DNA of 64,000 bases from Promethearchaeota archaeon (GCA_048939595.1 JBHLPI010000001.1:16267-80266); one strand, 5' to 3'. Shown: positions 14,664-34,106, counted from the first letter of the stretch. A program made the numbers and translations. Notes: generated by a model from the sequence alone, not told the origin.

Positions 14664-14771
14664 ATAGTTCAGTCCATATTACCTCTTATGGGAAAGAAGA
14701 ATACGCATATTTTCTACTTTAGGCTAGCGATATAATAGTTCATCAATTGAACGCGTTTTAGAGGATGACTA

Positions 14772-15989: not shown

Positions 15990-16002
15990 TATTCTATCCC
16001 AA

Positions 16003-16245
16003 CTAATGTTTTGCCGTGATTTTCACCAGTGCGCGGATGACACCATCGTTTTCCTCAACACTGATGAGTTCGTTGTTGGTTGCAGAAATCCAGCCTTTGA
16101 TATCCGGAGTAAAGCCAGGATCTGTTGCTAAAATTTCGAGAACGTCTCCATTCTGAGCTTTACGATAAGCCCGTGCCACTTCGGTAATTGGACCGGGGCA
16201 CGCCATACCGCGGCAGTCCACAATTGTTTTTGGTGTTTCAGCCAT
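16003..16245 (-). CDS. tusA: TusA-like sulfurtransferase (SirA/YedF/YeeD family)
   Basis: An 80-aa protein with the CPxP motif (CRGMACPGPI). Confidence 0.85.
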   Translation of the reverse strand: MAETPKTIVDCRGMACPGPITEVARAYRKAQNGDVLEILATDPGFTPDIKGWISATNNELISVEENDGVIRALVKITAKH

Positions 16246-16320
16246 GCTAACATCTCCGATTTTCAGTATTCATTATTCCTTGAGCATTTATTCCAGTATT
16301 CTTTGTTCTTTTGACAGTGA

Positions 16321-16749
16321 CTAAATGAATAGGGTGATATCTGCATCCTTTGCGAAGTTGAGGAATGCAGCAGCCCCAAGAACATCGTCGACTTCATCAA
16401 TCAAGTCTTCACGCTTAATGTTCATGACATCCATTGTCATCTGGCAAGCGTAAAGCTTAGCCCCTAGGTCTTTGGCATCACGAATCATTTCAGGAAGTGC
16501 TTTTGCTCCAGCCTTTTTCATTCGTCCCTTCATCATGCCAGTTCCTATTCGCATCAACCCACCTAGTTTGACGCTATCGGCTCCTCCCTTCTTTTTAAGA
16601 AGGTTCAGACCCGAGAAGGTGAAAAAGACGCTAACGTCCATATCCATGGAAGCGCCAGTCACACCAAGAATAAAGGGTGGGTAGGCCATGTCCATGGTGC
16701 TCTTTGAGACAATTATTGCCATACGTTTCTTACCATTTCTTTCAGTCAT
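16321..16749 (-). CDS. DsrE/DsrF-like family protein (sulfur relay / DsrE2-like)
   Basis: A DsrE-like roughly 140-aa core (RMAIIVSKST...KLYACQMTMDVM). Start placed at ATG 16749 (MTERNGKK), since the longer ORF runs into the promoter region. Confidence 0.55.
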   Translation of the reverse strand: MTERNGKKRMAIIVSKSTMDMAYPPFILGVTGASMDMDVSVFFTFSGLNLLKKKGGADSVKLGGLMRIGTGMMKGRMKKAGAKALPEMIRDAKDLGAKLYACQMTMDVMNIKREDLIDEVDDVLGAAAFLNFAKDADITLFI

Positions 16750-17021
16750 TTGATGCAACTCCGTGTTTCCATTAGTTGCGTATGTTAGAACATTCGACAA
16801 TTTGAATATGTTATACATAAAAGGTTTTCCTTTTTTACATACTCTAGATAAACACCTATGAAGAGTTGAAGAAATTGATTGAAAAGGCTTCTTTCTCAAA
16901 CAACCTAAAAGCCGATAGGTGTCCCATTCATCCGGTTTCCAAAAGCTTTTTGTATTAGAATATTTGAATACGTGCGAATAACAGATAGCACACCCTAAGC
17001 TATCTTGAGGACGGTTAGACA

Positions 17022-17387
17022 ATGCAACTGCTTGAATTTGGCCTTATCCTCATTTTCACAACTTTAATCTTTGCTTCATTTCTTGCATCCATTATCCTTT
17101 CAAAGCTTGTTAGCCCAAGAAACCCGTCAAAAGAGAAAACCAAAAGTTTTGAGTGTGGTGAGGAACCCAGCGGTGCAGGTCGTGGACAATTCGCATTTCG
17201 ATATTATCCGTATTTGTTGATGTTTTTAGTATTTGATGTTGCTGCGATGTTCCTTTTTGCTTGGGCAGGTGCATTCTCTTCATTAGGACTCGAGCTCCAT
17301 ATCACTGTTTTAGCATTTCTTTTGGTTGTACTACCTCCTGTTGCATATGCAGTAAATGCAGCAGGAAATGCGGAAAGGTGGAAATAG
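17022..17387 (+). CDS. nuoA: Complex I subunit A (NuoA/ND3-like)
   Basis: FECGEEPSG motif and three transmembrane helices. Confidence 0.85.
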
Positions 17388-17389
17388 CA

Positions 17390-17905
17390 ATGACGGGAAT
17401 GGGATCCGCGTTTGTTGGTTCACTTCGTAACGTTTTAAATCGCGTGGTCAACGTTAAGCCAATTCGATATTTTGTGAATTGGTCACGATTATATTCCTTA
17501 TGGCCCGTCCATTTAACCACAGCATGTTGTAGCGTAGAATTTGGAGCAACAATGGGTTCAGGATTTGATGCTGAACGACTCGGTCTTCTCCCCCTTGGTT
17601 CCTTACGGCAATGTGATCTTTTAATCATCGAGGGGACTGTGACAAAGAAAATGGCTGAGCGAGTCGTTCGCATTTACAACCAGATGGCTTCACCACGTTA
17701 CGTGATTGCAATGGGAGCGTGTGCAATTTCAGGTGGAGTCTTTCGCGATTCTTATAGCATAGTTCCTGGCGTTGACAAAATTCTTCCCGTGGATGTGTAT
17801 GTCCCCGGATGCCCTCCACGACCGGAGATGCTAATCGATGCCATTTTGGAACTTCAACAAAAAATCAGGGAATCGAAGGTGGCTTTAGTTGATGGTACAA
17901 AATGA
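17390..17905 (+). CDS. nuoB: Complex I subunit B (NuoB/PSST-like, with N2-type [4Fe-4S] ligands)
   Basis: [19 protein letters not shown] and [11 protein letters not shown], so all four Cys ligands are present. Start reassigned to ATG 17390. Confidence 0.85.
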
Positions 17906-18203
17906 TGTATTTGAATTACAGGCCGAGATCTGCAAAGTATTGGCAAACCCCAAACGAATTCGAATTATCCATGTACTGAAAGACGGAGATAAGTCCGTTA
18001 CGGAAATTTCCAAAGCACTTGGGATTAGCCAATCGAACACCTCTCAACATCTTAGATTAATGAAATCCAAAGGTGTGCTCAAGTCAAGGCGGGATGGCCG
18101 AGAAATTTTTTACAGTATTGCTGTGCCGGAGCTCTCTCTTGCTTGTGAATTCGTTGGGCGTGCTTTAGAAAAAATCGTTGGTATTCCGCGAGCAACAAAA
18201 TAG
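17889..18203 (+). CDS. ArsR/SmtB-family winged-helix transcriptional regulator, embedded between nuoB and nuoC
   Basis: HTH segment [29 protein letters not shown]. It overlaps the nuoB 3' end on the same strand. Confidence 0.75.
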
Positions 18204-18216
18204 CAGGTGAACGAAT

Positions 18217-18684
18217 TTGTCCAAGTATCTTAAAGACTTGAAATCAGCCTTTCACGAAACAGACCTGGAAATCATCGAGAGACATTCTAAACAGCCAGTT
18301 CTTCGGGTTCCCAGTGATCAATTAGTTCCAATCGCTCAATATCTGAAGGAGAATACGGGGTTTGATCATGCTGTATCAGTTTCTGTGATTGATGATTTGG
18401 CGAATAACCAGTTTCTCATCGCCTATCACCTCGCCTCTGTTAAAAAACCAGAGTTGCATGGCGTCGTCTTCACATTGGAAGTTGTGAGTCCTCGAGGAAC
18501 TCCCTCCACCCCCTCACTTACAGCAATCTGGCCAAGCGTTGAATTTCATGAACGGGAGGGTTGGGAGATGTTTGGAATTAAGTTTGAGGGGCATCCGAAA
18601 CTGGAACGCCTCCTTCTACCAGAAAGTTGGGAGGGAGGTTATCCACTTCGTAAGGATTTCAAGCAAAAGGAGGAGGCAAAATGA
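18217..18684 (+). CDS. nuoC: Complex I subunit C (NuoC, 30 kDa)
   Basis: EREGWEMFGIKFEGHPKLERLLL signature. Confidence 0.85.
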   Translation: MSKYLKDLKSAFHETDLEIIERHSKQPVLRVPSDQLVPIAQYLKENTGFDHAVSVSVIDDLANNQFLIAYHLASVKKPELHGVVFTLEVVSPRGTPSTPSLTAIWPSVEFHEREGWEMFGIKFEGHPKLERLLLPESWEGGYPLRKDFKQKEEAK

Positions 18685-19760
18685 CAGAAATAGAGTATAG
18701 CATGGGCCCTCAGCATGCTGGCACAGGTCATATGCGAATGAAAGTTCGCTTATCTGGAGACCGGGTTATTCAAGCATTACCTGATCCGGGTTACGTGCAT
18801 CGCGGTGCTGAAAAACTCTGCGAGTTAAAAGAATTCTTTTGGAATATTCCACTTCTTGAACGTGTTTGTCTTCCGGATACAACTCCAGCTGCTTGGGGAT
18901 ATGTTCTCGCTGTAGAACGGCTTATGGGACTAGTACCTACAGAACCAGCCCGCTATATCCGAGCCCTGTTTGCAGAAATGAATCGCATTGTGAGCCACCT
19001 ATATTGGCTAGCAATTTTTGGAATCTTTCTGGGTCACTCAACGATGTTCATGTGGCCCTTTGCTGAACGTGAACCCTTCATTGAACTTGCTGAAGCAATA
19101 TCGGGTTCAAGGCTTACTCATAGCGACATCTATCCGACCGGGGTTCGACAAGCCCTTCCAGACAACTTTGCCCCAAGGATGAAAAAAGTAATTAAGCATT
19201 TCCAAAAGCGCCTTGTCGATTATGAACGAATTTTTTTCACTACAGCCATTTTCAAACAGCGAACAAAAGAAATTGGTATCCTCACGAAGGAAGATGCCAT
19301 CCGACTAGGTACAACCGGACCAGTTCTACGTGGTTCTGGGGTGAATTACGATATACGGAAGATCGATCCCTATGGACCATATCCCAAATTAGATTTCGAG
19401 CCTGTTGTTAGGGATGAAGGCGATAGTTATTCCCGGGCAATGGTCCGATTAGAGGAAATGCGAGTAAGTGCAGCCTTAATTGAACAAATCTTAGATCAGA
19501 TTCCTCCGGGGGAAGTCCGTCTAAAAACCCCGAAAAAGGTTCCCGCGGGGGTAGCTTATACCCGGGTTGAATCCGCACGTGGAGAGTTAGGATATCTGGT
19601 TGTAAGCCATGGTGAGAAACAGCCTAGCCGAGTGAAAGTAAGTACACCATGCTTCCGACATCTTCCAGCTCTTGAGTTCCTCCTCAAGAATATTGACCTC
19701 GCAGACATTCCGAGTATCTATTGGAGTCTCGATTATTGGCCACCAAATGCGGACAGGTAG
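18681..19760 (+). CDS. nuoD: Complex I subunit D (NuoD, 49 kDa-like); not a [NiFe] hydrogenase large subunit
   Basis: MGPQHAGTGHMRM N-terminus. The N- and C-terminal CxxC NiFe-binding motifs are absent. ATGA overlap with nuoC. Confidence 0.8.
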   Translation: MTEIEYSMGPQHAGTGHMRMKVRLSGDRVIQALPDPGYVHRGAEKLCELKEFFWNIPLLERVCLPDTTPAAWGYVLAVERLMGLVPTEPARYIRALFAEMNRIVSHLYWLAIFGIFLGHSTMFMWPFAEREPFIELAEAISGSRLTHSDIYPTGVRQALPDNFAPRMKKVIKHFQKRLVDYERIFFTTAIFKQRTKEIGILTKEDAIRLGTTGPVLRGSGVNYDIRKIDPYGPYPKLDFEPVVRDEGDSYSRAMVRLEEMRVSAALIEQILDQIPPGEVRLKTPKKVPAGVAYTRVESARGELGYLVVSHGEKQPSRVKVSTPCFRHLPALEFLLKNIDLADIPSIYWSLDYWPPNADR

Positions 19761-19766
19761 TGATGA

Positions 19767-20816
19767 ATGTTGCAGATTCTCGAAACGATTAACATCTTAA
19801 TTCAGCAAATGATTACCTTTGTTTTAACAAACTTAACGACAATATTCCTCCTCACTGTGTTTCCTGGATTTCTCACCATCGTCCTTGCAGCTGCAGCAAT
19901 TATTTGGTTTGAACGAAAATTCCTTGCGAAAATGCAGTTACGTGTTGGTCCCCAATACGCAGGGCGTATCGGAGGAATCTTACAACCCGTCGCGGATTTC
20001 TTGAAGCTTATCTTCAAAGAAGGAATTGTCCCTAAACGTGCGGATAGTTTCTTTTATCAATTAGCACCAATTCTTATTGTCACCCTAGCAGCAGTCACCG
20101 CCACTGTAATTCCCGTCGGACCCACTGCCGTCATCGCCAATCTTGAATATGGATTATTATTCATTTTTGCTGCTGGTGCACTTTTTCCCGTTCTTGCTTT
20201 CTTAACTGCATGGGCGAGTAACAGTGCTTATCCGTTTCTGGGTGGTCTTCGTGCGCTTCTTCAGATGATGGCATATGAAGTACCTTTATGGCTGTCAGCG
20301 GTGGGTGTTGTTATTCTGGCTGGATCATTCAATCTCACAGCTATCGTATTGGCCCAAAATTGGCTTTGGTTTGCAATCCTCATGCCTTTAGGAGCGGTAG
20401 TCTTTTTCACCGCAATGCTTGTTGAGCTTGAACGCATTCCCTTCGATTTACCAGAAGCAGAACCAGAAATTGTGACAGGATACATGAGCGAATACTCGGG
20501 TATGAACTTTGGCTTAATGATGATGTCACAGTATCTGAAACTCTACCTTGGAGCCCTACTTTTCACTACCCTTTTCTTAGGTGGGTGGCTAATGCCACCA
20601 TTCATCACTACGATACTTCCCTTTATTCCGCCCTTCATATGGACCCTTCTCAAAACTGCTTTTGTGATTGTCCTCTTTCTACTCCCACGAGGAATCTATC
20701 CCCGTGTTAAAATCTCGAAACTCCTTAAACTGGGTTGGAACCGCCTCTTCTTCATTGCTGTTGTAAACCTGGTCTTGGTAGTTGGAATTATGTTTGTTCT
20801 TGGAGGTGTTCCCTAG
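19767..20816 (+). CDS. nuoH: Complex I subunit H (NuoH/ND1)
   Basis: FERKFLAKMQLRVGPQYAG...GILQPVADFLKLIFKE signature. Confidence 0.85.
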   Translation: MLQILETINILIQQMITFVLTNLTTIFLLTVFPGFLTIVLAAAAIIWFERKFLAKMQLRVGPQYAGRIGGILQPVADFLKLIFKEGIVPKRADSFFYQLAPILIVTLAAVTATVIPVGPTAVIANLEYGLLFIFAAGALFPVLAFLTAWASNSAYPFLGGLRALLQMMAYEVPLWLSAVGVVILAGSFNLTAIVLAQNWLWFAILMPLGAVVFFTAMLVELERIPFDLPEAEPEIVTGYMSEYSGMNFGLMMMSQYLKLYLGALLFTTLFLGGWLMPPFITTILPFIPPFIWTLLKTAFVIVLFLLPRGIYPRVKISKLLKLGWNRLFFIAVVNLVLVVGIMFVLGGVP

Positions 20817-21244
20817 TGCCGATCAAAGCGTCCTGGGCTGGACTAAAACAGATATTCAAACGTCGAGTCACCATTAAATACCCAAGTCAAGAATTAGAAC
20901 TGACAAAACGTGAACGTGGTCGCCACGTCTTTTACTTCGACCGATGTATTAGTTGTTCCTTATGCGCTCGGAGCTGCCCAACCTATGCGATTACTATGAT
21001 TGATTACCCAGGGAAAGAGAAGCCGAAGAGACACCCACAAATAGATTATGGTTTATGTATTTTCTGTGGGTATTGTGTCGATGCCTGTCCAAAGGATGCA
21101 CTAGTGCATTCTCGCTATTTTCATTTAGCAAACCGAGAAACTGCTCCGCTGGTTTTCAGTCCTGATCAGTTAGCAGAGATTCCCGAAGGAGAAGACCATC
21201 TTCTCCCATCTAATGAAGAATCTGAAAAGGAGGAAGACCAATGA
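20816..21244 (+). CDS. nuoI: Complex I subunit I (NuoI, 2x[4Fe-4S] ferredoxin-type)
   Basis: CISCSLCARSCP and CIFCGYCVDACP motifs. The GTG start overlaps the nuoH stop (TAGTG). Confidence 0.8.
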   Translation: MPIKASWAGLKQIFKRRVTIKYPSQELELTKRERGRHVFYFDRCISCSLCARSCPTYAITMIDYPGKEKPKRHPQIDYGLCIFCGYCVDACPKDALVHSRYFHLANRETAPLVFSPDQLAEIPEGEDHLLPSNEESEKEEDQ

Positions 21245-21759
21245 TTGATCCATTCTTCTTGCCAGATCTAGCGCTAATCGTAATTGGAGTTCTAACCATC
21301 GCGGCTGCTATAGCAGCCCTTGAGTCAAGAGAGATTGTTTACGGGGCAATTTCATTGGCTGGGATGTTCTTGGGTATTGCAGGGCTGTTCATCTTATTGG
21401 ACGCTTCATATGCAGCGATGTTTCAAATATCTGTGTATATTGGCGCTGTGGTCGTTCTGATCTTCTTTACCATTATGGTCGTTCCCTACGAACATTGGCG
21501 ATATCGGCTCAAACGACCGCGACGGGAATGGATTATTCCCCTGGTTATCAACGCACTCCTATTCAGTGTACTTCTCTACATCTTCTATTCACCCGCAATT
21601 GTTGAAGCCTTGCCAGACCCGGCATTTGGTTGGAACATAACAGATCTTGCCTTAGCTCTTCTGGAGGATTATGGTGTGGCACTATTGATTCTCGGGATCG
21701 TTCTTGCTTCAGCGCTCATAGGAGCCCTAACTTTGATAAAAAAGGAGGATGAAACCTAA
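21241..21759 (+). CDS. nuoJ: Complex I subunit J (NuoJ/ND6)
   Basis: Hydrophobic protein in the syntenic position, with a Gly-rich TM1. Confidence 0.7.
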   Translation: MIDPFFLPDLALIVIGVLTIAAAIAALESREIVYGAISLAGMFLGIAGLFILLDASYAAMFQISVYIGAVVVLIFFTIMVVPYEHWRYRLKRPRREWIIPLVINALLFSVLLYIFYSPAIVEALPDPAFGWNITDLALALLEDYGVALLILGIVLASALIGALTLIKKEDET

Positions 21760-22079
21760 TGGCGACGTTGGTCGTGTATCTGGTAATTGTAGGCTTCCTT
21801 GCGGCGATTGGGCTCTATGGATTGACTAGTAAGCGGAATGTCATGCGATTATTCTTTAGTATTGAAATCCTCATGAATGCAGCGAATTTGAGTTTCGTCG
21901 CTTTTGCCCGGTATGTACTATGGGGAGTTGCTGCGCTGGCTGTCATGGGCCATGCCATTGTGCTATTTGCTATAGCCCTTGAAGCCGCGGAGGCTGCCAT
22001 TGCGCTGGCAATTATTCTCCTCGTCTCACGAGTGCGAGGTTCAGTTGACATTCGTGAGCTTCGTGATCTGGAGGGTTAA
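21759..22079 (+). CDS. nuoK: Complex I subunit K (NuoK/ND4L)
   Basis: FFSIEILMNAANLSFVAF signature in a roughly 100-aa protein. Confidence 0.85.
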   Translation: MATLVVYLVIVGFLAAIGLYGLTSKRNVMRLFFSIEILMNAANLSFVAFARYVLWGVAALAVMGHAIVLFAIALEAAEAAIALAIILLVSRVRGSVDIRELRDLEG

Positions 22080-22084
22080 CCACT

Positions 22085-23617
22085 TTGCAGACGGTCATCG
22101 ATACTATCATAATCTTCCTGCTAACTCATCCGCTAACTTTGGGCATGTTCCTTCCACTCCTCTTTGCAGGCGCAATCTATCTCTTTGCACGACACCGGGA
22201 ACGTACAGCACAATGGGTAAGTATAATTGCAATAGTTCTCTCTATGGGTCTGGTATTGTTACGTGGATTAGAGCTATTCCCCTTTTCGACGTCTTCACCG
22301 CCCTATGTCTTAGAAACGTTTCTCTGGATTCCAACCCTTAATATTACCCTGAGCTTCATGCTCGATGGGCTTAATTTCCCTATAATAATTATCACAGCAA
22401 TTATTACTGCCCTAATAATTTCCTTTAGTCGCTATTACTTTGAAAATGTGAAAAATAATGGTACTTACTTTGCGACGATTCTCCTGATGTATGTTGGAAT
22501 GCTTGGCGTGTTTGTCGCGGCAGATCTTTTCTTATTCTATTTGTTCTGGGAAATCACAATCATACCAGCATATGTTTTTGTCATCTATTGGCGAGAAACA
22601 GGAGTTTCCAAAGTAGAGGCCCAAAAGACTGGTATGAAATTCTTCCTTTGGACACATGTAGGTTCCCTTGTTATGCTAATGGGTCTGATCCTTGTCTTCA
22701 CGTTAACGGGAACCACTAGAATGGTTGACATTCCAGCCGCATTGGCAACGGTGCCAATCGAATTTATGCATATTTTGCAATTTGCTGCGGCTGCAATGAT
22801 ATTCGGATTCATCGTCAAACTTGGCATTTTTCCTTTCCATAGTTGGCTCCCAGATACTTATGTTCAGGCTTCATCACCTGTCACTGCTCTAATTGGGGGA
22901 CTTCTTGCCAATATCGGAGCCTACGGATTGATACGGATTACAGCAAGTTGGTTTCCATCGATTATTGTCGCATGGTCAGTTCCACTGGGTCTACTCGCTA
23001 TATCCTCTATAATCTATGGTGGATATCTTGCCATTGGTCAGAGTGAATTCAAGCGGCGATGGGCCTATTCAAGCGTGAGTCAAGGTGGATACATCCTTCT
23101 TGGCGTTGCATCAGTTTCGGTCCTTGGACTTGCAGGCGCAGCCTTCCATATTATCAATTCGGCGATTATCAAATCCGCCTTATTTCTTACTGCTGGAGCT
23201 TATCTCATGATTGTTCGAACAACGAATATTGATTCCCTTCGTGGTATAGGCACTAAGATGCCGATAACTGGTATTTCCTTCTTACTAGCAGCTTTTGCTA
23301 TGGCCGGAATACCTCCATTAAGCGGGTTTATCAGTGAAATCCTCATCTTCCTGGGAATCTTCACGGTTTCGAATGCATTGATTGTGGCATTAATAGGAGC
23401 CGGTGCAATTTTGGTCACTTTCACTTACGTGCTTGGGCCTATTTACAAGCTCTTTGTGTCACCACCTGAATCAAAACTTACCAACAAGAAGGATCCATCT
23501 CACTGGCAATCAATTCCATTCATCCTCATGACACTCCTTGTAGTTGTCATAGGAATTTGGCCTGACCTAGTTCTAACGCCAATTGGACACTGGGTACTCA
23601 ATCTAGGAGGACTCTAA
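22085..23617 (+). CDS. Additional NuoM/ND4-like (Mrp antiporter-like) membrane subunit, copy 1
   Basis: FYLFWEITIIPAYVFVIYWRETG and HSWLPD motifs of the NuoL/M/N-MrpA/D family. It lies between nuoK and nuoL. Confidence 0.75.
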   Translation: MQTVIDTIIIFLLTHPLTLGMFLPLLFAGAIYLFARHRERTAQWVSIIAIVLSMGLVLLRGLELFPFSTSSPPYVLETFLWIPTLNITLSFMLDGLNFPIIIITAIITALIISFSRYYFENVKNNGTYFATILLMYVGMLGVFVAADLFLFYLFWEITIIPAYVFVIYWRETGVSKVEAQKTGMKFFLWTHVGSLVMLMGLILVFTLTGTTRMVDIPAALATVPIEFMHILQFAAAAMIFGFIVKLGIFPFHSWLPDTYVQASSPVTALIGGLLANIGAYGLIRITASWFPSIIVAWSVPLGLLAISSIIYGGYLAIGQSEFKRRWAYSSVSQGGYILLGVASVSVLGLAGAAFHIINSAIIKSALFLTAGAYLMIVRTTNIDSLRGIGTKMPITGISFLLAAFAMAGIPPLSGFISEILIFLGIFTVSNALIVALIGAGAILVTFTYVLGPIYKLFVSPPESKLTNKKDPSHWQSIPFILMTLLVVVIGIWPDLVLTPIGHWVLNLGGL

Positions 23618-23619
23618 AA

Positions 23620-25245
23620 ATGCTACCAGGAATTCCTCTGCCATATCCATTCTTGCTCCTTTCTCTTCTAATTCCTGTCATCGCTGCAATACTAATCCTT
23701 TTAACAATCCTCGTTGGGAAGCCCTTAGGCCGAAAGGGTGCTGGGCTAATTGCATCGATTGCCATGGCGAGCTCCTTCATCATATTACTCTACGTTCTCA
23801 GTATTGTCTTAGCCGTTGGGCAACCCGTCTATGAAGAATACTATTGGTTTTCAATTGGCCCGGTAATTGTTGAATTCTCCCTCCTTGCTGACTCCCTTAG
23901 CCTCCCGCTTTCATTGGCCATCATTGGTTTGTGTACTGCATCAGCAATCTACAGTATCGAATACATCAAAGACAAGCACGATTTTGCCATGTATTATGTT
24001 CTCCTCCTCTTCTTTGCTCTTGGTATGCTCGGAGTAACCATGGCAACCAACCTCATTGTCTTCTTCATCTTCTTCGAAGGAATGAACATTCCAGCCTACT
24101 TCCTCGTCTCCAACTGGGGAACAAAGAAAGCCAAAATCATCGGCATAAAATACATACTTTATATCTTCATCGGCGCTATCTGTATCCTCACGGCTATTTT
24201 TTGGGTATTTGGAATAACAAGTACCTTGGGAACACCCACACTGAATATCTACGAGCTCCCTGCAATACTCAATCCCCTAGCATCAACAAGTCTACTAATC
24301 ATGCAAAGCCTTGCCCTCCTATTCTCTATAGGATTCTTCGTAAAAATGGCAATCTTCCCTCTCCACTCATGGCTGCCAGACTTTCATGGCGAAGCTCCAG
24401 TACCAATTCACGCTTTACTTAGCGCCGTCATGATCAAAACAGGAGCCTATGGGTTTATTCGAATTACATTCTTTTTCTTCCCATCTGTGGTTCTTCACGC
24501 CTCACTGCTCCTTGCGGTCCTAGCCATCATTACAATGATTTGGGGAGCAGGTATGGCATTAGTTCAAACGGATTACAAACGTGTTCTAGCTTATAGTTCT
24601 GTAAACCAGATTGGTTACATCCTTCTTGGTCTTAGTACCATGAACATCTTTGGAATCACTGGTGCTCTCTTTCATATTCTAACCCATGGTCTTTCCAAAG
24701 GAGTTCTACTTTACACTGCAGGTTCACTGGTGCACTCCGCAGGAACAAAACTCATCAGTAAAATGGGAGGGCTAGCCTCTAAAATGCCATTAACCTCATC
24801 CCTGAGTACAATTGGAGCACTAGCCATTGCGGGAACACCGCCTCTTGCCACATTCGTCAGTGAAGTCTTAATCTTCATGGGCGTTTTCACTGTTGGCTTC
24901 ACCTATCCGATCTTTACAGTCATAGGAATTATCGGAGTTATTTCCACTGCACTCACTGCTGCCTATTATTTGTGGACAGTTCGAAGAATATTCTTCGGTC
25001 CACCATCTAGAAAAATGGACAAAATGTATGAGGACTATCTTGCTGGCGAGTACACCCCTCCAGAAGGAATTCCACGGCGTTTCAAAGATGTCCATGAATC
25101 ACCGCCCCTGATGACTATTCCAATGCTTATTGTTGCATTCCTTATTGTTAGCTTTGGAGTCTTCGCGGGCTTCATTCTCCCAATCCTCTATCCCGCTGCT
25201 GAAGCCATCGTAACAATGCTTACAGCGACCATAGGAGGACTCTAA
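23620..25245 (+). CDS. Additional NuoM/ND4-like (Mrp antiporter-like) membrane subunit, copy 2
   Basis: FFIFFEGMNIPAYFLVSNWG and HSWLPDFHGEAP motifs. Confidence 0.75.
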   Translation: MLPGIPLPYPFLLLSLLIPVIAAILILLTILVGKPLGRKGAGLIASIAMASSFIILLYVLSIVLAVGQPVYEEYYWFSIGPVIVEFSLLADSLSLPLSLAIIGLCTASAIYSIEYIKDKHDFAMYYVLLLFFALGMLGVTMATNLIVFFIFFEGMNIPAYFLVSNWGTKKAKIIGIKYILYIFIGAICILTAIFWVFGITSTLGTPTLNIYELPAILNPLASTSLLIMQSLALLFSIGFFVKMAIFPLHSWLPDFHGEAPVPIHALLSAVMIKTGAYGFIRITFFFFPSVVLHASLLLAVLAIITMIWGAGMALVQTDYKRVLAYSSVNQIGYILLGLSTMNIFGITGALFHILTHGLSKGVLLYTAGSLVHSAGTKLISKMGGLASKMPLTSSLSTIGALAIAGTPPLATFVSEVLIFMGVFTVGFTYPIFTVIGIIGVISTALTAAYYLWTVRRIFFGPPSRKMDKMYEDYLAGEYTPPEGIPRRFKDVHESPPLMTIPMLIVAFLIVSFGVFAGFILPILYPAAEAIVTMLTATIGGL

Positions 25246-25246
25246 T

Positions 25247-27280
25247 ATGCTTCTGTACGCACAATGGCTCGCATGGATCATTCCCGTCCTCGGTGCGATT
25301 CTTATCGCTACAGTTGGATGGTTCGATAAGCGGCTTCCCAAATACATTGCTGTTGTTGTTGGGGCTATTGCCGCTATATTCGCTGTTTCCATGATTCAAG
25401 ATATACTTGCCTTACCATCCTTAGGAGTAGCTTACCTTGAATTCAATTATCCATGGGTAGTGCTACCTGGAATCACAATCTATGTTGGAGTTCTCCTCGA
25501 TCCATTAAGTGTCTTCATGAGCAACATTGCCATCCTCATCGGCTTCCTGATCATCGTCTATTCCATGAGCTATATGGGTGAAGATAAAAGCCAAACCCGC
25601 TACTATGCGATGATTCTTCTCTTCATCGGTGCTATGACAGGCCTCGTACTTTCTAACAACTTTCTCCAATTATTCATCTTCTGGGAAATTGTGGGAATCT
25701 GCTCATACGCACTAATCGGATTCTGGTATGAAAAACCGGAGGCGGCGCGGGCTGGAATGAAAGCCTTTGTCGTGACTCGTGTGGGCGACGTGCTCCTTCT
25801 GATCGGTATCGTATTCCTTTTCACGCAGGTAGGATCTTTTAACTACATTATCATTCAAAACGCCGTACAACTTGGTATGGTTAGCCTTTTTGCACTCACC
25901 ATGGTTTCGCTCTTCACCTTTGGTGGTGCCATGGGTAAATCTGCGCAAGTTCCATTTCAAGTCTGGCTTCCAGATGCTATGCAGGGTCCAACACCCGTTA
26001 GCGCTCTGATCCACGCAGCGACAATGGTCAAAGCGGGCATCTATCTTGTGGGTCGAACCTTCTTTCTTTTTGGTTCTGTCACACTTTGGCTTAATACAGT
26101 CATCATTATCGGTTCAATCACTTCAATACTTGCAGCAACAATAGCTTTAGCTTCCACTGATCTCAAAGGTGTTCTCGCCTATTCAACGATAAGCCAACTT
26201 GGTCTTATCATGGCTGCACTCGGAGTCGGAACGGCAGTAGGATGGTTTGCAGGTCAAGCGCACGTGATGAGCCATGCCATCTTTAAAGCCTTACTCTTCC
26301 TTTGCGCAGGTTCAGTCCTTCATGCTGTCATGACTAATGATATCAACCAGATGGGAGGGCTCCGCCATAAAATGCCAATAACATTTGCAGCAAGCGTGAT
26401 TGGTGTTTTAGCGTTAGGCGGTATATTTCCCTTTAATGGATTCTGGAGTAAAGATCTCATATTTGCAGCTACCTTGAACTCTGGTGCACTCATACCCCTA
26501 GTTCTGCTTTGGGCGGCGTCTGTGTTTACTGTGGCGTATAGTTTCCGGTGGATAATTTTGATTTTCTTAGGTGAACCACGAAATGAGGAAGTCGTTTTGC
26601 ATGCCCATGAAAGTCCCAAGTTAATAACCATCCCACTAACCATCTTAGCCACGGCCGTTATCATTTCAGCAGTTCTCATTCCCACAGGATTACTGGCAAC
26701 CTATTTTGATGTTCATATCCATTTTGAAATCGAACTGATCCCACTCTTGCTTTCGCTCTCTACCCTTGCAATCGGAGGGATTCCAGCGATTTTAGTCTAC
26801 AAATATCGAAAGCCAGGACCAGAAACATTTGGGCGAAACCGCATAAGCGGTGTGATACAAAAGGTGTTAAGCAATGGATATTACTTTGACAAAGTCTATG
26901 ACTGGGTTTTTGTACGTGGTACACTTCGAATTTTTAATTTCATCCTATCACGAATTGAACTTGGCACCATTGACCGATTCCACTATGTTTTGGCACCCAA
27001 AGTAGAAGCTGGAAGCCTCAAGTTAGAACAGGTAGTCGAGCATCGAGGATTTGATAGTGCTAATAGCAAATTTTCGCAATTCATAGTCAAAACATCGAAT
27101 GCCAGCAACTATGTAGATGTGAATATAGTTGATGGAGTAGTCAACAGAATCGCCACTGCAGGAGAGAGAGCCTCCAAAGGTCTACGGCGAGTACAAACAG
27201 GTGTCACAATGAACTATATCCTCGCCTTTGTAATTGGGATAGTTCTACTGATTCTATTTCTGGTAATATTGGGTTGGTGA
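25247..27280 (+). CDS. nuoL: Complex I subunit L (NuoL/ND5) with the long C-terminal extension
   Basis: 677 aa, with the NuoL signature FIFWEIVGICSYALIGFWYEKPEAARAGMKAFVVTRVGDV. Confidence 0.85.
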   Translation: MLLYAQWLAWIIPVLGAILIATVGWFDKRLPKYIAVVVGAIAAIFAVSMIQDILALPSLGVAYLEFNYPWVVLPGITIYVGVLLDPLSVFMSNIAILIGFLIIVYSMSYMGEDKSQTRYYAMILLFIGAMTGLVLSNNFLQLFIFWEIVGICSYALIGFWYEKPEAARAGMKAFVVTRVGDVLLLIGIVFLFTQVGSFNYIIIQNAVQLGMVSLFALTMVSLFTFGGAMGKSAQVPFQVWLPDAMQGPTPVSALIHAATMVKAGIYLVGRTFFLFGSVTLWLNTVIIIGSITSILAATIALASTDLKGVLAYSTISQLGLIMAALGVGTAVGWFAGQAHVMSHAIFKALLFLCAGSVLHAVMTNDINQMGGLRHKMPITFAASVIGVLALGGIFPFNGFWSKDLIFAATLNSGALIPLVLLWAASVFTVAYSFRWIILIFLGEPRNEEVVLHAHESPKLITIPLTILATAVIISAVLIPTGLLATYFDVHIHFEIELIPLLLSLSTLAIGGIPAILVYKYRKPGPETFGRNRISGVIQKVLSNGYYFDKVYDWVFVRGTLRIFNFILSRIELGTIDRFHYVLAPKVEAGSLKLEQVVEHRGFDSANSKFSQFIVKTSNASNYVDVNIVDGVVNRIATAGERASKGLRRVQTGVTMNYILAFVIGIVLLILFLVILGW

Positions 27281-27286
27281 GTCATT

Positions 27287-28747
27287 ATGGTTCTTTGGGA
27301 AAATGCATTACTCATATTGATTGGCGGAGCATTACTAGGTTCAGTCATTTTGTACCTGTTGGGTCGATTTGGCGAAAGGATTGTCAAAGGCTTTGCTGTG
27401 ATCTGGACCGCCCTCTTGTTCCTTTTCACAGGACTAATATGGTTAGGATTCAACTCCAGTGCACCAGGATTTTCCTACCTCATCGAAATCCCTTGGATAC
27501 CAACCCTTGGTATTACCTTCAAACTGGGTGTTGATGGGATCAGCTTTCCATTGCTTTTAGCCACAACGCTTCTCACTTTAGCTGCAACGATTGGATCCCT
27601 TACATTAATCAAAGAACGAGTCGCTATGTACTTTGGCACACTCTTACTGCTTGAAGCTGCACTTATTGGAGTATTTGTTTCTCTGAACTTACTTGTCTTC
27701 TTCATCTTTTGGGAACTCGTTCTAATTCCCATGTTTATTCTAATCGGTATTTGGGGCTATGAAAACCGCCGATATGCGGCAATGAAATTCCTAATCTTTA
27801 CCCATGTTGGCAGCATCCTGATGCTCTTGGGATTCATCATACTCTTCCTCTTCGCTGGTACCTGGGATTTGACCTACTTCCTCACTTCACCAATTCCCTT
27901 CGCTGTTGCAGTACCAGTCATGATAATCACTTTCATTGGATTCGCCGTGAAACTACCCATTGTTCCCCTTCACACCTGGCTTCCCGATGCCCACGTTGAA
28001 GCCCCAGCCCCCATAAGCATCATCTTAGCAGGAGTCCTGTTGAAAATGGGAGGCTATGGCTTAATCCGTATTACTATTGGAGTGTTTCCTGAAGTTTCAG
28101 CGTGGCTGGCACCAATCATCATGACCCTAGGCATTATAACGATTTTTTACGGTGCACTGGTCGCATTAAATCAACGTGACATGAAACGTATGATTGCCCT
28201 AACAAGCATCAATCACATGGGACTAGTCCTCCTTGGTGCTTTTACGCTCACAACCATTGGAGTTGCAGGTGCCGTATTTATGATGTTCAATCATGCCTGT
28301 GCAATAGGTATGATGTTTCTGCTTACAGGCGTTATCCAAAAACGCACAGGAACTCGAAACATAGACGAACTATCAGGTATGGGCAAATTCATGCCTTGGA
28401 CAGCCTTTTTCTTCGTTTTAGGTTCACTTGCCTCTATGGGAATACCATTCTTTGCACCCTTCGTCAGCGAATTCATGATCTTTACTGGCGCTCTTTCAAT
28501 TCTACCGCTTCTGGTGTTTATTATTCTCGCACCAGGAATTGTCGCGGCCTATTTTCTATGGACAATTGATCGCATTGTAATTACTGACCCACGCCCAGGA
28601 ACCCGTATGCGACGTGCTCGTAATACAGAACTTATCGCGCTTACGTTGTTACTGATTCCAGTTATTCTCCTTGGACTCCTTCCTGCGATGATGGTTGACC
28701 GGATTATTCCAGCTGTACAAGTCTTACTAAGCTTTGGAGGTTCGTAG
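27287..28747 (+). CDS. nuoM: Complex I subunit M (NuoM/ND4)
   Basis: FKLGVDGISFPLLL and FFIFWELVLIPMF signatures. Confidence 0.85.
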   Translation: MVLWENALLILIGGALLGSVILYLLGRFGERIVKGFAVIWTALLFLFTGLIWLGFNSSAPGFSYLIEIPWIPTLGITFKLGVDGISFPLLLATTLLTLAATIGSLTLIKERVAMYFGTLLLLEAALIGVFVSLNLLVFFIFWELVLIPMFILIGIWGYENRRYAAMKFLIFTHVGSILMLLGFIILFLFAGTWDLTYFLTSPIPFAVAVPVMIITFIGFAVKLPIVPLHTWLPDAHVEAPAPISIILAGVLLKMGGYGLIRITIGVFPEVSAWLAPIIMTLGIITIFYGALVALNQRDMKRMIALTSINHMGLVLLGAFTLTTIGVAGAVFMMFNHACAIGMMFLLTGVIQKRTGTRNIDELSGMGKFMPWTAFFFVLGSLASMGIPFFAPFVSEFMIFTGALSILPLLVFIILAPGIVAAYFLWTIDRIVITDPRPGTRMRRARNTELIALTLLLIPVILLGLLPAMMVDRIIPAVQVLLSFGGS

Positions 28748-30217
28748 ATGCAATTTACTGAAATGATCATATGGTTCTTCAGCCTTGTTGCTAGCCCTTT
28801 CTTCCCCTTCATCATATTTGCGATTCTAGCGTTGCTTACACCTGTTATCGATCGAGTCTTTCGAGGGAAAGTCGCCCCTTTTTGGGCACTCCTCAATCTT
28901 GCTATATTCGCAATATTAGTGCTGCCTCAATGGACGACCATTATTACTTCACCATCCGTCTCCACAACCCTCCTCCTAGATGGCATTAGCCTATTTTTCG
29001 TGACTCTTTTCATCGTCGTTGGTGTTGCCGTCATCATTGCATCAATTAACTACTTCGAGGAAAATCCCAACAAAGAGATCTACTACACATTACTGCAACT
29101 AGCCCTTCTAGGAATGATGTTGTTATCCATGGCAGTTGATTTAATTGTCATGTTCGCCGGATGGATACTCGTTGCTGTTAGCAGCTACACACTTGTGGTA
29201 ATTCGTAAAGACAATGCACAAGGTGTTGAGGCTGGCGTAAAGTACCTCATCATGAGCGCTGCATCCTCAGCAGTAATGTTACTTGGCATCTCAGTAATCT
29301 TTGGACTCACAGGAAGTACTCGATTAGTAGAGATTTCTTCGGCATGGACTACCCTTGATCCAAACCTTGTTCCTATCGCCCTACTAGGCGTAATGTTGAT
29401 TCTAGTTGGATTTGGGTTCAAAATGGGCATCATCCCATTCCATATGTGGCTGCCTGACACGTATGAAGGCGCCCCACAGCCAGTTTCCGCCTTTCTAGGC
29501 GGAGGCTCAAATAAAGCCGCTTTTGCTGTGGCTATCCGTGTCTTCATTTTAGGATTCCTGATCTTCCGCTTCCAATGGACTGCTGCATTTGCTTTTCTCG
29601 CACTAATAACTATGACGTGGGGAAACATTGCAGCTCTCTCACAAAAAACTCTTCCAAGGTTGCTCGCATATTCAGCTATTGCACAAGCGGGGTACACAAT
29701 AATCGGTCTTGCCGTACCAACGGTCTTAGGATTATCAGGCTTAATGTTTCATGCCTTGAATGATGGATTAGCCAAAACAGGAGCATTCATTGCAGCAGCA
29801 GCTGTCGCTTTTACGCTTACGAAAACCAAACTTTCTGGATACAATGGCTTAAGCAAACGAATGCCAATCACTGCTCTTAGCTTAACAATTCTACTTTTAG
29901 CACTTGCAGGTGTCCCTCCTTTGAGTGGATTTTTCAGTAAACTGATTTTGTTTACAGCAGCAGTCGAAGTAGGATTACTCTGGTTAGCACTCGCAGGTGT
30001 CCTTAATAGCGCGTTTTCACTTGCTTATTACGGATGGATAATCAAACGAATGTTTATGGACGAGCCTGACGAGGCGGTCACAGATCAGCCCGTCAGAGAA
30101 TCACGTAAATTCCAGTTTGTGCTCATCACACTAGCAGTAGCCACAATTCTCATTGGAATTTTTAGTGGTATAATTCTCGGATACATCGAAGCCATAGTGA
30201 TTGGGTTCTTACCTTAA
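28748..30217 (+). CDS. nuoN: Complex I subunit N (NuoN/ND2)
   Basis: GVEAGVKYLIMSAASSAVMLLGISVIFGLTG signature. Confidence 0.8.
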   Translation: MQFTEMIIWFFSLVASPFFPFIIFAILALLTPVIDRVFRGKVAPFWALLNLAIFAILVLPQWTTIITSPSVSTTLLLDGISLFFVTLFIVVGVAVIIASINYFEENPNKEIYYTLLQLALLGMMLLSMAVDLIVMFAGWILVAVSSYTLVVIRKDNAQGVEAGVKYLIMSAASSAVMLLGISVIFGLTGSTRLVEISSAWTTLDPNLVPIALLGVMLILVGFGFKMGIIPFHMWLPDTYEGAPQPVSAFLGGGSNKAAFAVAIRVFILGFLIFRFQWTAAFAFLALITMTWGNIAALSQKTLPRLLAYSAIAQAGYTIIGLAVPTVLGLSGLMFHALNDGLAKTGAFIAAAAVAFTLTKTKLSGYNGLSKRMPITALSLTILLLALAGVPPLSGFFSKLILFTAAVEVGLLWLALAGVLNSAFSLAYYGWIIKRMFMDEPDEAVTDQPVRESRKFQFVLITLAVATILIGIFSGIILGYIEAIVIGFLP

Positions 30218-30235: not shown

Positions 30236-31591
30236 TCATTCATTGGGTGGAGTTATTCGTAAGAATTGTCCAACAAGTGTAACGATGTCAACCACCGGTA
30301 TGTCCAAGCCAAGCCGTTGCATCCCATGAGTAAGATTAAGAACACAGAAAGGACAGGCAGAGACAACCATGGTCGCCCCTGTTTCCATAATTTCACCAAC
30401 ACGTTCCCAGGCCATGCGCTCTTCTAAAGGCATTACCGCCTTTTCTTCTTCGGAAAGTTCATGATACTCTCTTGTTAGGTTTTTTGCCGCCTCCTTAACT
30501 TGAGCTGGGGAACTGGTAGGTTTGGCATCATGGATTCGTTTTGCGGCGATCTCTAAGGCAAGCTCTGGTATTCCAGCTTTTACTCCACCCCCAGCGCCAC
30601 AACACCGTGAGTATTCTCGGGTGCGCTTCATCTCGACAAGTGTTATGCCAGGCAAAAGCTCAAGGATTCGTCGAGGCTCATCATAGACGCCTACATGGCG
30701 ACCAAGATGACAGGGGTCGTGATATGCTACACGTTCCTCAACACCCGGGAGGGGGTCAATCTTAACGGTTTCTAATTTCTTAGCAAGCAATTGTGTAATA
30801 TGTTGAACTTTGAAAGGTAACTTCCCGTAGTATCTTGGCCAATCGAAGACAGAGGTTCGAAAACAACCAGAGCATGAATACACAACGAGGTTCACACCTT
30901 TTTCTCTGATAGTGTTTACATTGTGTTGAACGAGGTCTTTGACGACTTCAATCTGTCCAGTTCGAATAAGTGGAGAACCACAGCACCGTTCATCATTTCC
31001 GGGTAATACAAAATCGATATTTAGCTTGTTTAGAATCCGAGCTGTGGTAATGGCGAGGTGTTGCATCTTATAAGAAGATGTACATCCCACAAAATATGCT
31101 ATATCTGCGGTCTCAGCTACTTTGACATCAGAAGGCAACCAATTTGATCGTGCAAGATGATCTTCTCCATACGGGTTATACTTGGTTTTAACATTAGTTG
31201 GCCATTGGCGCTGTCGTTCGAGTGGTCCAAAACCTTGCTTCACCATATCAGCGCGAATTGTTTCCCATAGACTACAACTTTTAATTCGTGATTCACACAC
31301 CGTTTGACACTGTCCACAGACTGTGCAAAGGTAAAGATCTTCCACAAACTTGTCGATCTTATTCTTATCAATAAGACTTCCACCTCTAGCCCGTCCCATA
31401 ATTCCGTAGACGTGTTTGACCATTTCTCGCAGATTTCGAATCTTTCCACGAGCTGTTACACCTTCGCGCTGTAACTGGTCAAAGACTGGACAGAACTTAA
31501 CACATTCCCCACAATCGACACAAGCATCGAGTTCCATCGTTTGTTTTCGAGTTAATTGTGGGAAACTCATTTTTTCTTTATTAGTTGTCAT
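30236..31591 (-). CDS. HdrD-like / GlcF-like iron-sulfur oxidoreductase with two CCG domains. Start uncertain: 31651, 31591 or 31570.
   Basis: Two ferredoxin-like 4Fe-4S motifs (CVDCGECVKFCP, CTVCGQCQTVCES) and two CCG cysteine clusters (FVGCTSS, RCCGSPL, HDPCHLGRH, CCGAGGG, CPFC). Confidence 0.75.
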   Translation of the reverse strand: MTTNKEKMSFPQLTRKQTMELDACVDCGECVKFCPVFDQLQREGVTARGKIRNLREMVKHVYGIMGRARGGSLIDKNKIDKFVEDLYLCTVCGQCQTVCESRIKSCSLWETIRADMVKQGFGPLERQRQWPTNVKTKYNPYGEDHLARSNWLPSDVKVAETADIAYFVGCTSSYKMQHLAITTARILNKLNIDFVLPGNDERCCGSPLIRTGQIEVVKDLVQHNVNTIREKGVNLVVYSCSGCFRTSVFDWPRYYGKLPFKVQHITQLLAKKLETVKIDPLPGVEERVAYHDPCHLGRHVGVYDEPRRILELLPGITLVEMKRTREYSRCCGAGGGVKAGIPELALEIAAKRIHDAKPTSSPAQVKEAAKNLTREYHELSEEEKAVMPLEERMAWERVGEIMETGATMVVSACPFCVLNLTHGMQRLGLDIPVVDIVTLVGQFLRITPPNE

Positions 31592-32306
31592 TCTCATCAA
31601 CACCCGTGACTTCGCGAATATATTCCTCCTCCCACTTTTCTTCAATCGCACTACGAACCATGATTATTGGCGCCGCAATGATATGCTGAAATTTTGAATA
31701 AAATAAAACGGCAATCATCGTCCATATAATGAATCCGTGAATGATTCCATACCACCCGCGAATACCGATAACATATTCATAGGAAAACGCTAAATGCCCT
31801 GATACTGCAATAGACAGCAGTAGAATCAACGGTAAGTAGTTATGAAAGTTTGTTACCGCTCGCCCCTCTTTCGAACCAATGCGGCTCCCAAAAGCCAGTA
31901 TTACACCAATTACTAGCATTATAGTCAATACATCATGAGCAATGATTCGCATTTCCAGAGTAGCCCAAGGAAAGAGAATGGCTTCATTAAGTAAAATGAG
32001 CCGAGGGATCCCATGGAAGAAAAGGAGACCTGCAAATCCCACCAAAATAAATCCGTGTTTCACCCATCTAAACATGGACTGACGTCTTATCGTTCCACCA
32101 AAAGTCCAATCAGAGATTACCGTCTTAATAAAAGCCACAAATTTTGTTCGAAAAGGCACATCAATGAGCCAACCAGCTGTATGCTCAGCAGGTTCTTCGT
32201 GTGGTTTCGTCCAACGGACGAGAATCCGAATGAAACCGATCGTAAACAGGGCTAACGCGATCCAACGATAGAAAAACAAAATTTGATACGCTAGCTCTTG
32301 TTCCAT
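31581..32306 (-). CDS. Putative membrane cytochrome b-type subunit (HdrE/DsrM/NarI-like), partner of the HdrD-like protein
   Basis: About 5 transmembrane helices with several conserved-looking His residues. It is immediately upstream of, and overlapping, the HdrD-like gene. Family assignment rests on context and topology. Confidence 0.45.
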   Translation of the reverse strand: MEQELAYQILFFYRWIALALFTIGFIRILVRWTKPHEEPAEHTAGWLIDVPFRTKFVAFIKTVISDWTFGGTIRRQSMFRWVKHGFILVGFAGLLFFHGIPRLILLNEAILFPWATLEMRIIAHDVLTIMLVIGVILAFGSRIGSKEGRAVTNFHNYLPLILLLSIAVSGHLAFSYEYVIGIRGWYGIIHGFIIWTMIAVLFYSKFQHIIAAPIIMVRSAIEEKWEEEYIREVTGVDENDN

Positions 32307-32480
32307 AAAATCGCACCTTTAACCTCTATTCAAACGCCCCAGATTTTCATCATAAGGCTTCCCAATTTACTATTCGTACCTCTTTTCAGACAGAACAGAC
32401 CGTGAAAAAAGAAAAGGGGAAAATTGGAGGGCGTGACAACAAGGTCAATAGCCCTCCAATTTCGTTTTCGTCATGTAAAT

Positions 32481-34046: not shown

Positions 34047-34106
34047 TATTGATTCCCTCTGTGCTTCTTTAGAAGGTTGCACCCAGTGAAGTTAGCATTC
34101 TCGAAT

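Follow-up and report, generated by a model that had tools for sequence, protein, structure and literature searches.

A 64,000-nucleotide (nt) stretch of DNA from a Promethearchaeota archaeon (GCA_048939595.1, JBHLPI010000001.1:16267-80266), hereafter called the window, carries a complex I-like nuo operon in which two additional antiporter-like genes, designated X1 and X2, lie between nuoK and nuoL. X1 and X2 are probably integral antiporter-like modules of a complex I-like enzyme lacking NuoE, NuoF, and NuoG (NuoEFG), the membrane arm of which would contain five such modules. The genes form a single tightly packed operon of the order nuoABCDHIJK-X1-X2-LMN (17022-30217, plus strand) in a host of the Promethearchaeota/Thorarchaeota type of Asgard archaea. 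The core of 11 subunits (A, B, C, D, H, I, J, K, L, M, and N) is complete, with X1 and X2 in addition, and no nuoE, nuoF, nuoG, or fpoF was found in the 64-kb window. A preliminary description of this DNA, made from the sequence alone, had placed two open reading frames (ORFs) of 510 and 541 amino acids (aa) between nuoK and nuoL, and its coordinates proved exact. The features on which the argument rests are the following.

21759..22079, plus strand: nuoK, with the two membrane Glu residues kept (SIEIL, ALEAAEA)
22085..23617, plus strand: X1, first extra M-type antiporter-like subunit, 510 aa, TTG start; assigned by family, residues, AlphaFold2 (AF2) model, and tree
23620..25245, plus strand: X2, second extra M-type antiporter-like subunit, 541 aa, ATG start; assigned by family, residues, and tree
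25247..27280, plus strand: nuoL, 677 aa, with the Lys-Asp pair of transmembrane helix 12 (TM12); NF005141 at 549 bits, TIGR01974 at 527 bits
26885..27202, plus strand: lateral helix HL of NuoL, residues 547-652 (106 aa), four modules of ~26.5 aa
26966..27127, plus strand: the two inserted HL modules, roughly residues 574-627, from the stretch unmatched in alignments with Protein Data Bank (PDB) chains and from the module split
27287..28747, plus strand: canonical nuoM, 486 aa; TIGR01972 at 468 bits, groups with E. coli NuoM
28748..30217, plus strand: nuoN, 489 aa; TIGR01770 at 320 bits, below the cut-off of 332.6, and therefore assigned by tree and residues

The gaps between these genes are 5 nt (K-X1), 2 nt (X1-X2), 1 nt (X2-L), 6 nt (L-M), and 0 nt (M-N), and a GGAGG sequence lies 10 nt 5' of the TTG start of X1. 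In the NCBI annotation (P0001), X1 begins at an internal ATG and has 490 aa; orthologues of 510-512 aa span the N-terminal 20 residues.

Family, fold, and kinship of X1 and X2

Both proteins matched the Proton_antipo_M profile (PF00361) over almost its full length, X1 with an E value of 5.5e-60 (profile positions 1-288 of 294) and X2 with an E value of 1.8e-65 (positions 1-286 of 294). Both also scored above the cut-off of 263.8 bits for NDH_I_M (TIGR01972), with 321 bits for X1 and 306 bits for X2, compared with 468 bits for canonical NuoM. The antiporter motifs named in the preliminary description are present, namely, LFWEITIIPAY and HSWLPD in X1 and IFFEGMNIPAY and HSWLPD in X2, the latter reading FFE and not FWE. 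The family fold has 14 TM helices, with two inverted repeats of five helices and breaks in TM7 and TM12. Structural modeling, one of the checks proposed there, returned a complete NuoM/NdhD-like fold for X1, with a predicted local distance difference test score (pLDDT) of 92, a predicted template modeling score of 0.92, and helices interrupted around residues 246-264 and 406-413. The best Foldseek matches of this model were NuoM and NdhD chains, with TM-scores of 0.86-0.90 and root mean square deviations of 2.1-2.8 Å. X2 aligns end to end with family members at the sequence level and carries an N-terminal L-like beta-hairpin domain (PF00662, 29 bits). The TM11 Lys and PF00662 features of X1/X2 are absent from NuoM.

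That the two proteins differ from the bona fide NuoM, as had been claimed, was borne out by pairwise identities and by phylogeny. X1 and X2 are 35% identical to each other, 33% and 34% identical, respectively, to NuoM, 31-32% identical to NuoN, and 30% identical to NuoL. In a neighbor-joining tree (480 columns, 100 bootstraps), the L, M, and N proteins of the operon grouped with E. coli NuoL, NuoM, and NuoN, the canonical M at bootstrap values of 88-100. X1 proteins of the Thor and L008 lineages (compared loci carry L numbers) formed a clade with a bootstrap of 100, which the X1-like protein of L016 joined at 55%, and X2 formed a clade across three lineages (Thor, L008, and L016), also with a bootstrap of 100. 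Both clades fall within a poorly resolved M-like supergroup that includes the "M" subunits of archaeal hydrogenase-like complexes. Neither protein is thus an orthologue of canonical NuoM, which is a separate gene (27287-28747), X1 and X2 having clades of their own. A recent tandem duplication of nuoM was ruled out by the 33-35% identity among X1, X2, and M and by the separate orthologue clades. Because these clades span lineages, X1 and X2 must be older than the split between these lineages and have been retained ever since; judged from their sequences, they are old, separately maintained paralogues.

Channel residues

The residues expected to line the proton channels were read from an alignment with E. 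coli NuoL, NuoM, and NuoN (NC_000913). X2 and essentially all of its orthologues have TM5 Glu, TM6 Lys, TM7 Lys, TM8 Lys (a position held by His in L-type subunits), TM11 His and Lys, and TM12 Glu; of these residues, X1 shares the Glu of TM5 and TM12 and the Lys of TM7 and TM11. The TM5 Glu/TM7 Lys pair (LFW[E] and FIV[K] in X1; IFF[E] and FFV[K] in X2) is present in all orthologues, and the M-specific TM12 Glu is found in both proteins (FIS[E]ILI in X1 and FVS[E]VLI in X2). X2 therefore looks like a fully equipped module that very probably pumps.

Two-module insertion in the lateral helix of NuoL

Measured from the conserved FDxxY start to the QTG motif before TM16, the NuoL HL of the window is 106 aa long, compared with 49 aa in E. 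coli, 53 aa in Methanomethylovorans FpoL, and 52-53 aa in most archaeal relatives. The extra 54-55 aa sit at one point within HL and amount to two modules of ~26.3 aa; this insert is absent from canonical NuoL, NdhF, and FpoL. In HMMER alignments, residues 568-622 of the query were left unmatched by T. elongatus NdhF (6hum_F, chain 602 to 604) and residues 559-621 by M. smegmatis NuoL (8e9g_L, chain 563 to 573). Surplus length outside HL, as in FpoL, plant ND5/NdhF, and Paracoccus NuoL, was ruled out, since the unmatched stretch lies within HL; FpoL, at 671 aa, has a normal HL of 53 aa.

The HL can be divided into four units of ~26.5 aa, each opening with an [FIV]D motif (FDKVYD, IDRFHY, FDSANSKF, and VDGVVN), the module start being [FIV]D..(N)Y-like. 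Unit 1 resembles the canonical first unit and unit 4 matches the canonical last one, VDGVVN being identical in NdhF, so that the two middle units constitute the insertion. In the AF2 model of NuoL, helices at residues 547-598 and 603-650 are followed by TM16 at residues 654-676. The E. coli counterpart of the module start, the kink at D563-P564-L565-N566, is the point at which HL contacts NuoM (PMC3274701).

HL lengths were then measured in 166 NuoL-type proteins (120 NuoL homologues and 46 L-type proteins from fetched loci). Apart from a small, poorly anchored L-like group at 57-71 aa, which was left out, all lengths fell into classes of 26, 51-54, 77-80, 103-107, and 128-133 aa. The best-fitting period was 26.3 aa, with a root mean square residual of 0.8 aa compared with 7.6 aa expected for unstructured lengths. 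Duplication is directly visible in some proteins, among them P0138, which contains an exact repeat of GIDKLNYIVANQTTRLSRVLLSYAELK. This period agrees with the HL insertion of 26 aa per extra subunit given for the 2M complex I of Nitrospira and for the Manganitrophaceae enzyme (PMC9040806). When the HL-TM16 tail was compared with 1.84 billion representative proteins, ~10-15 clusters aligned over all four modules and most matches covered the last module and TM16 only; the exact four-module architecture is rare, as far as so short a query allows this to be inferred.

HL modules and local antiporter genes were compared over about 50 loci. An HL of 26 aa was found with two antiporter-like genes (L018), HLs of 49-54 aa with three genes in 13 of 17 loci (among them E. 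coli, Fpo, and L017), HLs of 79-80 aa with four genes (L069 and L027), and HLs of 105-106 aa with five genes (window, L001, L002, L016, L025, and L019). Three further loci with an HL of 106 aa (L008, L022, and L023) have four genes interrupted by contig ends, which is consistent with five. Every complete X1-X2-L-M-N locus (window, L001, L002, L016, and L025) combines a 106-aa HL with five antiporter genes, in agreement with the earlier proposal that X1 and X2 extend the membrane arm. The relation of one antiporter gene more than HL modules thus holds for the X1-X2 family and for most two-module loci, and within that family HL length is strong supporting evidence, not a universal law.

Conservation in Asgard lineages

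The order K-X1-X2-L-M-N is kept in at least four Asgard lineages. Three Thor/Promethearchaeota genomes (L001-L003) share it at 75-89% identity, and in a more distant lineage (L008, L009, and L023) X1 is 47-50% and X2 63-65% identical to the window proteins. X2 is 61-62% identical in marine-sediment contigs (L024-L026). A 729-kb contig (L016), which also encodes a heme-copper oxidase, carries an X1-like protein of 508 aa, an X2-like protein of 532 aa, and an L subunit of 702 aa, while in L022 the contig end truncates X2, after which come L, M, and N. Orthologues of X1 and X2 with shared synteny were found in other metagenome-assembled genomes at 47-100% identity. The three query proteins have their closest relatives in metagenome-assembled genomes annotated as Promethearchaeota or Candidatus Thorarchaeota; some X2 orthologues are named Candidatus Borrarchaeum, and one long-HL NuoL is named Ranarchaeia.

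Proposed five-module enzyme

We infer the following model of how X1 and X2 are physically incorporated, of subunit order and stoichiometry, of electron donor and acceptor, and of the direction of operation. The arm would comprise five antiporter-like subunits in place of three, with N at the proximal end, L at the distal end, and M, X1, and X2 in some order between the two. A fused L-M read-through was considered for placing X1 and X2 but was dropped as unreliable. The HL of NuoL, grown from two to four docking modules, would span the other four subunits as far as its TM16 anchor and clamp them together.

In solved complex I structures (3RKO and 4HEA), N abuts K/J and L is distal. The gene order K-L-M-N thus reverses the structural order, and an insertion between nuoK and nuoL therefore says nothing about contact between L and K. 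The preliminary description was mistaken in supposing that L would no longer adjoin K, as it is N that abuts K/J.

Electrons would enter through NuoI and NuoB and pass to a membrane carrier. The redox core is intact, with the N2 cysteines of NuoB, the two 4Fe-4S motifs of NuoI, and the NuoK glutamates. As there are no genes for an NADH or F420 input module, reduced ferredoxin is the most likely donor, and the quinone genes flanking the operon make menaquinone the most likely carrier. This flanking island of quinone and sulfur genes (11163-16990 and 30236-35701) encodes MenA (124.8 bits against a cut-off of 102), a polyprenyl synthase, a geranylgeranyl reductase, a type-III SQR-like flavoprotein, a DsrE-like protein, an HdrD/TfrB-like CCG protein, a DoxD-like membrane protein, and a FixC-like flavoprotein. 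Synteny is shared with L008 for MenA, the polyprenyl synthase, and the reductase, and with L016 for the synthase and the reductase. Asgard Nuo enzymes without NuoEFG have been read as ferredoxin:menaquinone enzymes (PMC9723677).

The charge wave that usually drives three modules and the E-channel would here drive up to five modules and the E-channel, nominally 6 H+ per 2 e-. By our own estimate, electron transfer from ferredoxin (~-450 to -500 mV) to menaquinone (~-75 mV) yields 72-82 kJ per 2 e-, enough to move ~5-6 H+ when the membrane potential is 120-150 mV. A ratio of 6 H+ per 2 e- would thus lie close to the thermodynamic limit for this couple, and the enzyme would therefore be readily reversible; in the reverse mode, the membrane potential could drive the reduction of ferredoxin by menaquinol.

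Evidence against the five-module reading and alternative explanations

Several observations weigh against the five-module reading, beginning with those on the HL itself. AF2 confidence in this helix is low (pLDDT 40-66), as expected for a helix modeled without its partners. A strict rule by which the number of HL modules plus one gives the number of antiporter genes had to be rejected, since it fails for Bathyarchaeota-type loci, for FrhB-linked Fpo-like loci, and for L043 and L050. In the Bathyarchaeota-type L-M-N loci, HLs of 51, 78, 80, 105, or 107 aa are always found with three genes (counting L060, which ends at a contig end, and L049, in which the third gene lies ~6 kb off). The FrhB-linked Fpo-like loci L014 and L021 combine a five-module HL of 130 aa with three antiporter genes within 10 kb, L013 is a further exception with an HL of 133 aa and three adjacent antiporter genes, and L043 and L050 have a two-module HL (53 aa) yet four genes. 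Because of these loci, a long HL alone is no proof of extra subunits.

The exceptional loci have further features of their own. The Bathyarchaeota-type loci (L010/L011/L054, L046, L047, L049, L057, and L060) encode closely related L subunits with two, three, or four near-identical tandem HL modules. In L014 and L021, the L subunits have 700 and 714 aa, and NuoC and NuoD are fused and NiFe-hydrogenase-like and are followed by an FrhB/FpoF-like gene with a CBS domain. The order in L043 and L050 is an N-like gene, two X2-like genes, and an L gene with a canonical HL.

As HL repeat number is independent of gene count in the Bathyarchaeota-type loci, a single subunit may serve there in several copies. 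This allows a broader idea, which we put forward only tentatively. The HL of NuoL/MrpA-type proteins could be a modular ruler of one to five tandem-duplicated docking repeats of ~26.3 aa; in X1-X2-L-M-N, modules and subunits would have diverged together into a fixed five-module machine of ~6 H+ per 2 e-, while in other archaeal lineages, in which near-identical repeats range from two to five at a constant gene count, the repeat number may set the copies of one subunit and so tune stoichiometry.

The identity of the electron acceptor is also uncertain, because NuoD lacks the canonical quinone-binding Tyr. The residue aligned to Tyr273 of E. coli NuoCD is Leu (ERVC[L]PD), in L008 as well, whereas FpoD keeps the Tyr. 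The acceptor site of NuoD may accordingly differ from canonical quinone sites.

The channel residues raise a doubt about X1 and NuoN. The preliminary description had treated loss of the charged TM7 and TM12 residues as the mark of a degenerate, non-pumping paralogue. X2 retains all of the charged residues in TM5, TM7, TM8, TM11, and TM12 and X1 most of them, but in the X1 of the Thor clade (window and L001-L003) Asn takes the place of TM8 Lys and Ser that of TM11 His. NuoN of the same clade has Ile for TM5 Glu and Asp for TM11 His, with TM12 Lys kept. These four substitutions are confined to the Thor clade, and other lineages with the operon keep the canonical residues; the X1 orthologues of L008, L016, and L024-L026, in particular, retain TM8 Lys and TM11 His. 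The changes in X1 and NuoN may be correlated, in which case X1 and N might be neighbors in the arm. X1 keeps a complete fold with a central relay softened in the Thor clade, and its channel there may be weakened or altered. Since these residues are lost, the true stoichiometry may fall below 6.

Taken further, this would make X1 and X2, X1 above all, partly or wholly non-pumping spacers within the arm, with 4-5 H+ per 2 e-. Besides the substitutions in X1 and the loss of TM5 Glu from NuoN, this explanation draws on the fact that X1 is the fastest-evolving of the five subunits, being 76% identical to its L001 counterpart compared with 82-89% for the others, and 47% identical to that of L008 compared with 58-65% for X2, L, and M. 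We nevertheless consider it rather unlikely. X1 keeps TM5 Glu, TM7 Lys, TM11 Lys, and TM12 Glu in a complete NuoM-like fold, its orthologues elsewhere have the Lys and His, X2 is intact, and Asn and Ser would still be able to line a water wire.

A second possibility, raised in the preliminary description as a distinct Na+/H+ module, is that X1 and X2, perhaps with NuoL, form a separate Mrp-like cation/proton antiporter that is merely cotranscribed with nuo and not driven by electrons. Family membership is indeed shared with MrpA/MrpD, and a relative of X2 (54% identical) lies in the L027 operon together with MrpE, F, G, B, C, and D. The order in L027 (8523-17729) is a 481-aa gene, the X2 relative, an L-like gene with a three-module HL, MrpE, F, G, MnhB, MrpC, and MrpD; with four antiporter-like genes, it amounts to an expanded Mrp antiporter, and it is the closest outside relative of X2. 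In the 64-kb window, however, MrpB, E, F, and G are absent, tblastn with MrpE/F/G/B/C of L027 giving no match better than an E value of 0.18, and the operon holds no unassigned ORF besides an ArsR-like one. There is only one L-type subunit, located between X2 and M, the K-X1-X2-L-M-N order is retained in four lineages, and HL has gained exactly two modules, as expected if L spans X1, X2, M, and N. We therefore rejected a separate Mrp module, which seems very improbable; what remains of the proposal is an evolutionary link to Mrp-type modules, indicated by the X2 relative in the Mrp-like operon of L027.

Finally, we give hardly any credence to X1 and X2 as alternative isoforms that would stand in for M and/or N in certain conditions and leave three modules per complex: some related archaeal contigs do carry several J-K-L-M-N-like sets, and cyanobacterial NDH-1, which uses alternative NdhD/NdhF pairs, offers a precedent in its D/F paralogues, but the five genes here are tightly coupled in one operon in which L occurs once, every family member has an HL of twice the canonical length, and X1 and X2, both being M-type (TM12 Glu), would be unable to replace N (TM12 Lys).

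Relation to known enzymes and significance

Complex I is usually described as a fixed machine of 4 H+ per 2 e-. Departures from this scheme were reportedly described by Chadwick, Hemp, Fischer, and Orphan in 2018 (in ISME J 12:2668) as 2M complex I in Nitrospira and others, and the 2M complexes with four modules are said there to include archaeal fosmid examples. Like the enzyme proposed here, the 2M enzymes reportedly have an extra NuoM-type gene in the nuo cluster and ~26 aa added to HL per extra subunit, from which a higher proton yield per electron pair and facilitated reverse electron transport are inferred. They differ in having one extra subunit (four modules), whereas the present operon has two, giving five modules, and its HL insertion is double, at 54-55 aa. 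Its extra genes also lie between nuoK and nuoL, are old paralogues and not close copies of NuoM, and belong to an Asgard archaeal host without NuoEFG.

Five ion-pumping subunits have been reported in Complex_I_3 of "Candidatus Manganitrophaceae" (Yu et al. 2022, mBio, PMC9040806), which was called unique in the known biological world. That enzyme is described as a hybrid in which two MrpD-like subunits replace NuoL beside two NuoM and NuoN, with one 26-aa insertion in MrpD2 (PMC9040806). Shared features are the five pumping subunits in one cluster, the HL insertion, and the proposed ~6 ions per 2 e-, possibly in reverse. The present operon differs in its single true NuoL with a two-module insertion, its NuoM and NuoN, and two separate M-type paralogues, and it is archaeal and of independent origin. 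Reverse electron transport has been considered for both the 2M and Manganitrophaceae enzymes (PMC9040806), an idea echoed by the near-equilibrium reading proposed here.

The Fpo-like enzyme of Methanothrix, cyanobacterial NDH-1, and Asgard Nuo share with the present system an 11-subunit core without an NADH module, a presumed ferredoxin donor, and menaquinone biosynthesis genes (PMC9723677, PMC3144371), but they have three antiporter-like subunits and a two-module HL (53 aa in FpoL and 49 aa in E. coli). Mrp antiporters belong to the same antiporter-like family, with the X2 relative of L027 among them; unlike these, the window lacks MrpB, E, F, and G and has X1 and X2 within the operon of a redox enzyme. 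Among Asgard archaea, group-4 hydrogenase/complex I-like clusters of Freyarchaeia and Atabeyarchaeia contain up to eight Nuo-like antiporter genes (PMC11291895) and likewise an L-type subunit with a full HL. These are [NiFe]-hydrogenases, whereas the NuoD of the window is without NiFe-ligand cysteines, and gene order and X1/X2 groups are different. An arrangement resembling those clusters (PMC11291895) was observed in L013 and L015 (one 1.25-Mb JGI contig) and in L019, where one nuoABCDHI set is accompanied by several J-K-L-M-N-like sets with interleaved V-type ATPase genes and L subunits with HLs of 105, 128, and 133 aa.

Neither the K-X1-X2-L-M-N architecture nor a two-module HL insertion nor a quantized series of HL repeats was described in the literature that we searched. 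The enzyme proposed here would be a second, independently built five-module case, conserved in metagenome-assembled genomes of the Thor-, Borr-, and Ranarchaeia type. Such a second case suggests that arm extension is a general route by which pump stoichiometry is matched to driving force. Together with the other enzymes, it would complete a natural series of two, three, four, five, and perhaps six modules on which "electrostatic wave" models of coupling could be tested. For Asgard physiology, the model predicts a ferredoxin-menaquinone coupling site near equilibrium, which bears on energy conservation or the supply of low-potential reductant in slow-growing relatives of eukaryotes. The quantized 26-aa HL repeat also offers a simple sequence marker with which genomes can be screened for noncanonical arms.

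Other genes of the operon

The remaining genes upstream of nuoK are as follows.

17022..17387, plus strand: nuoA, 64-88% identical to its orthologues in L001-L003 and L008; the L008 protein matches PF00507
17394..17905, plus strand: nuoB, with the N2 cluster cysteines and GCPP in the translation; ATG 6 nt past the nuoA stop
17889..18203, plus strand: ArsR-family helix-turn-helix (HTH) ORF, 104 aa; PF01022 (HTH_5), E value 3.2e-13
18217..18684, plus strand: nuoC, from ORF translation and orthologues
18681..19760, plus strand: nuoD; NF004739 (NuoD) at 400.8 bits against a cut-off of 360
19767..20816, plus strand: nuoH, from ORF translation and orthologues
20735..21244, plus strand: nuoI, with two CxxCxxCxxxCP motifs in the translation
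21241..21759, plus strand: nuoJ, from ORF translation and orthologues

As mechanically called, the nuoI ORF overlaps nuoH by 82 nt, and its real start is probably near 20815. In NuoD, the His of the HxG motif is displaced by one position. The ArsR-like ORF between nuoB and nuoC overlaps the end of nuoB by 17 nt, and it occupies the same position in L001-L003, at 82-84% identity, and with weak conservation (37%) in L008; it is unusual for a complex I operon to contain a transcription regulator.

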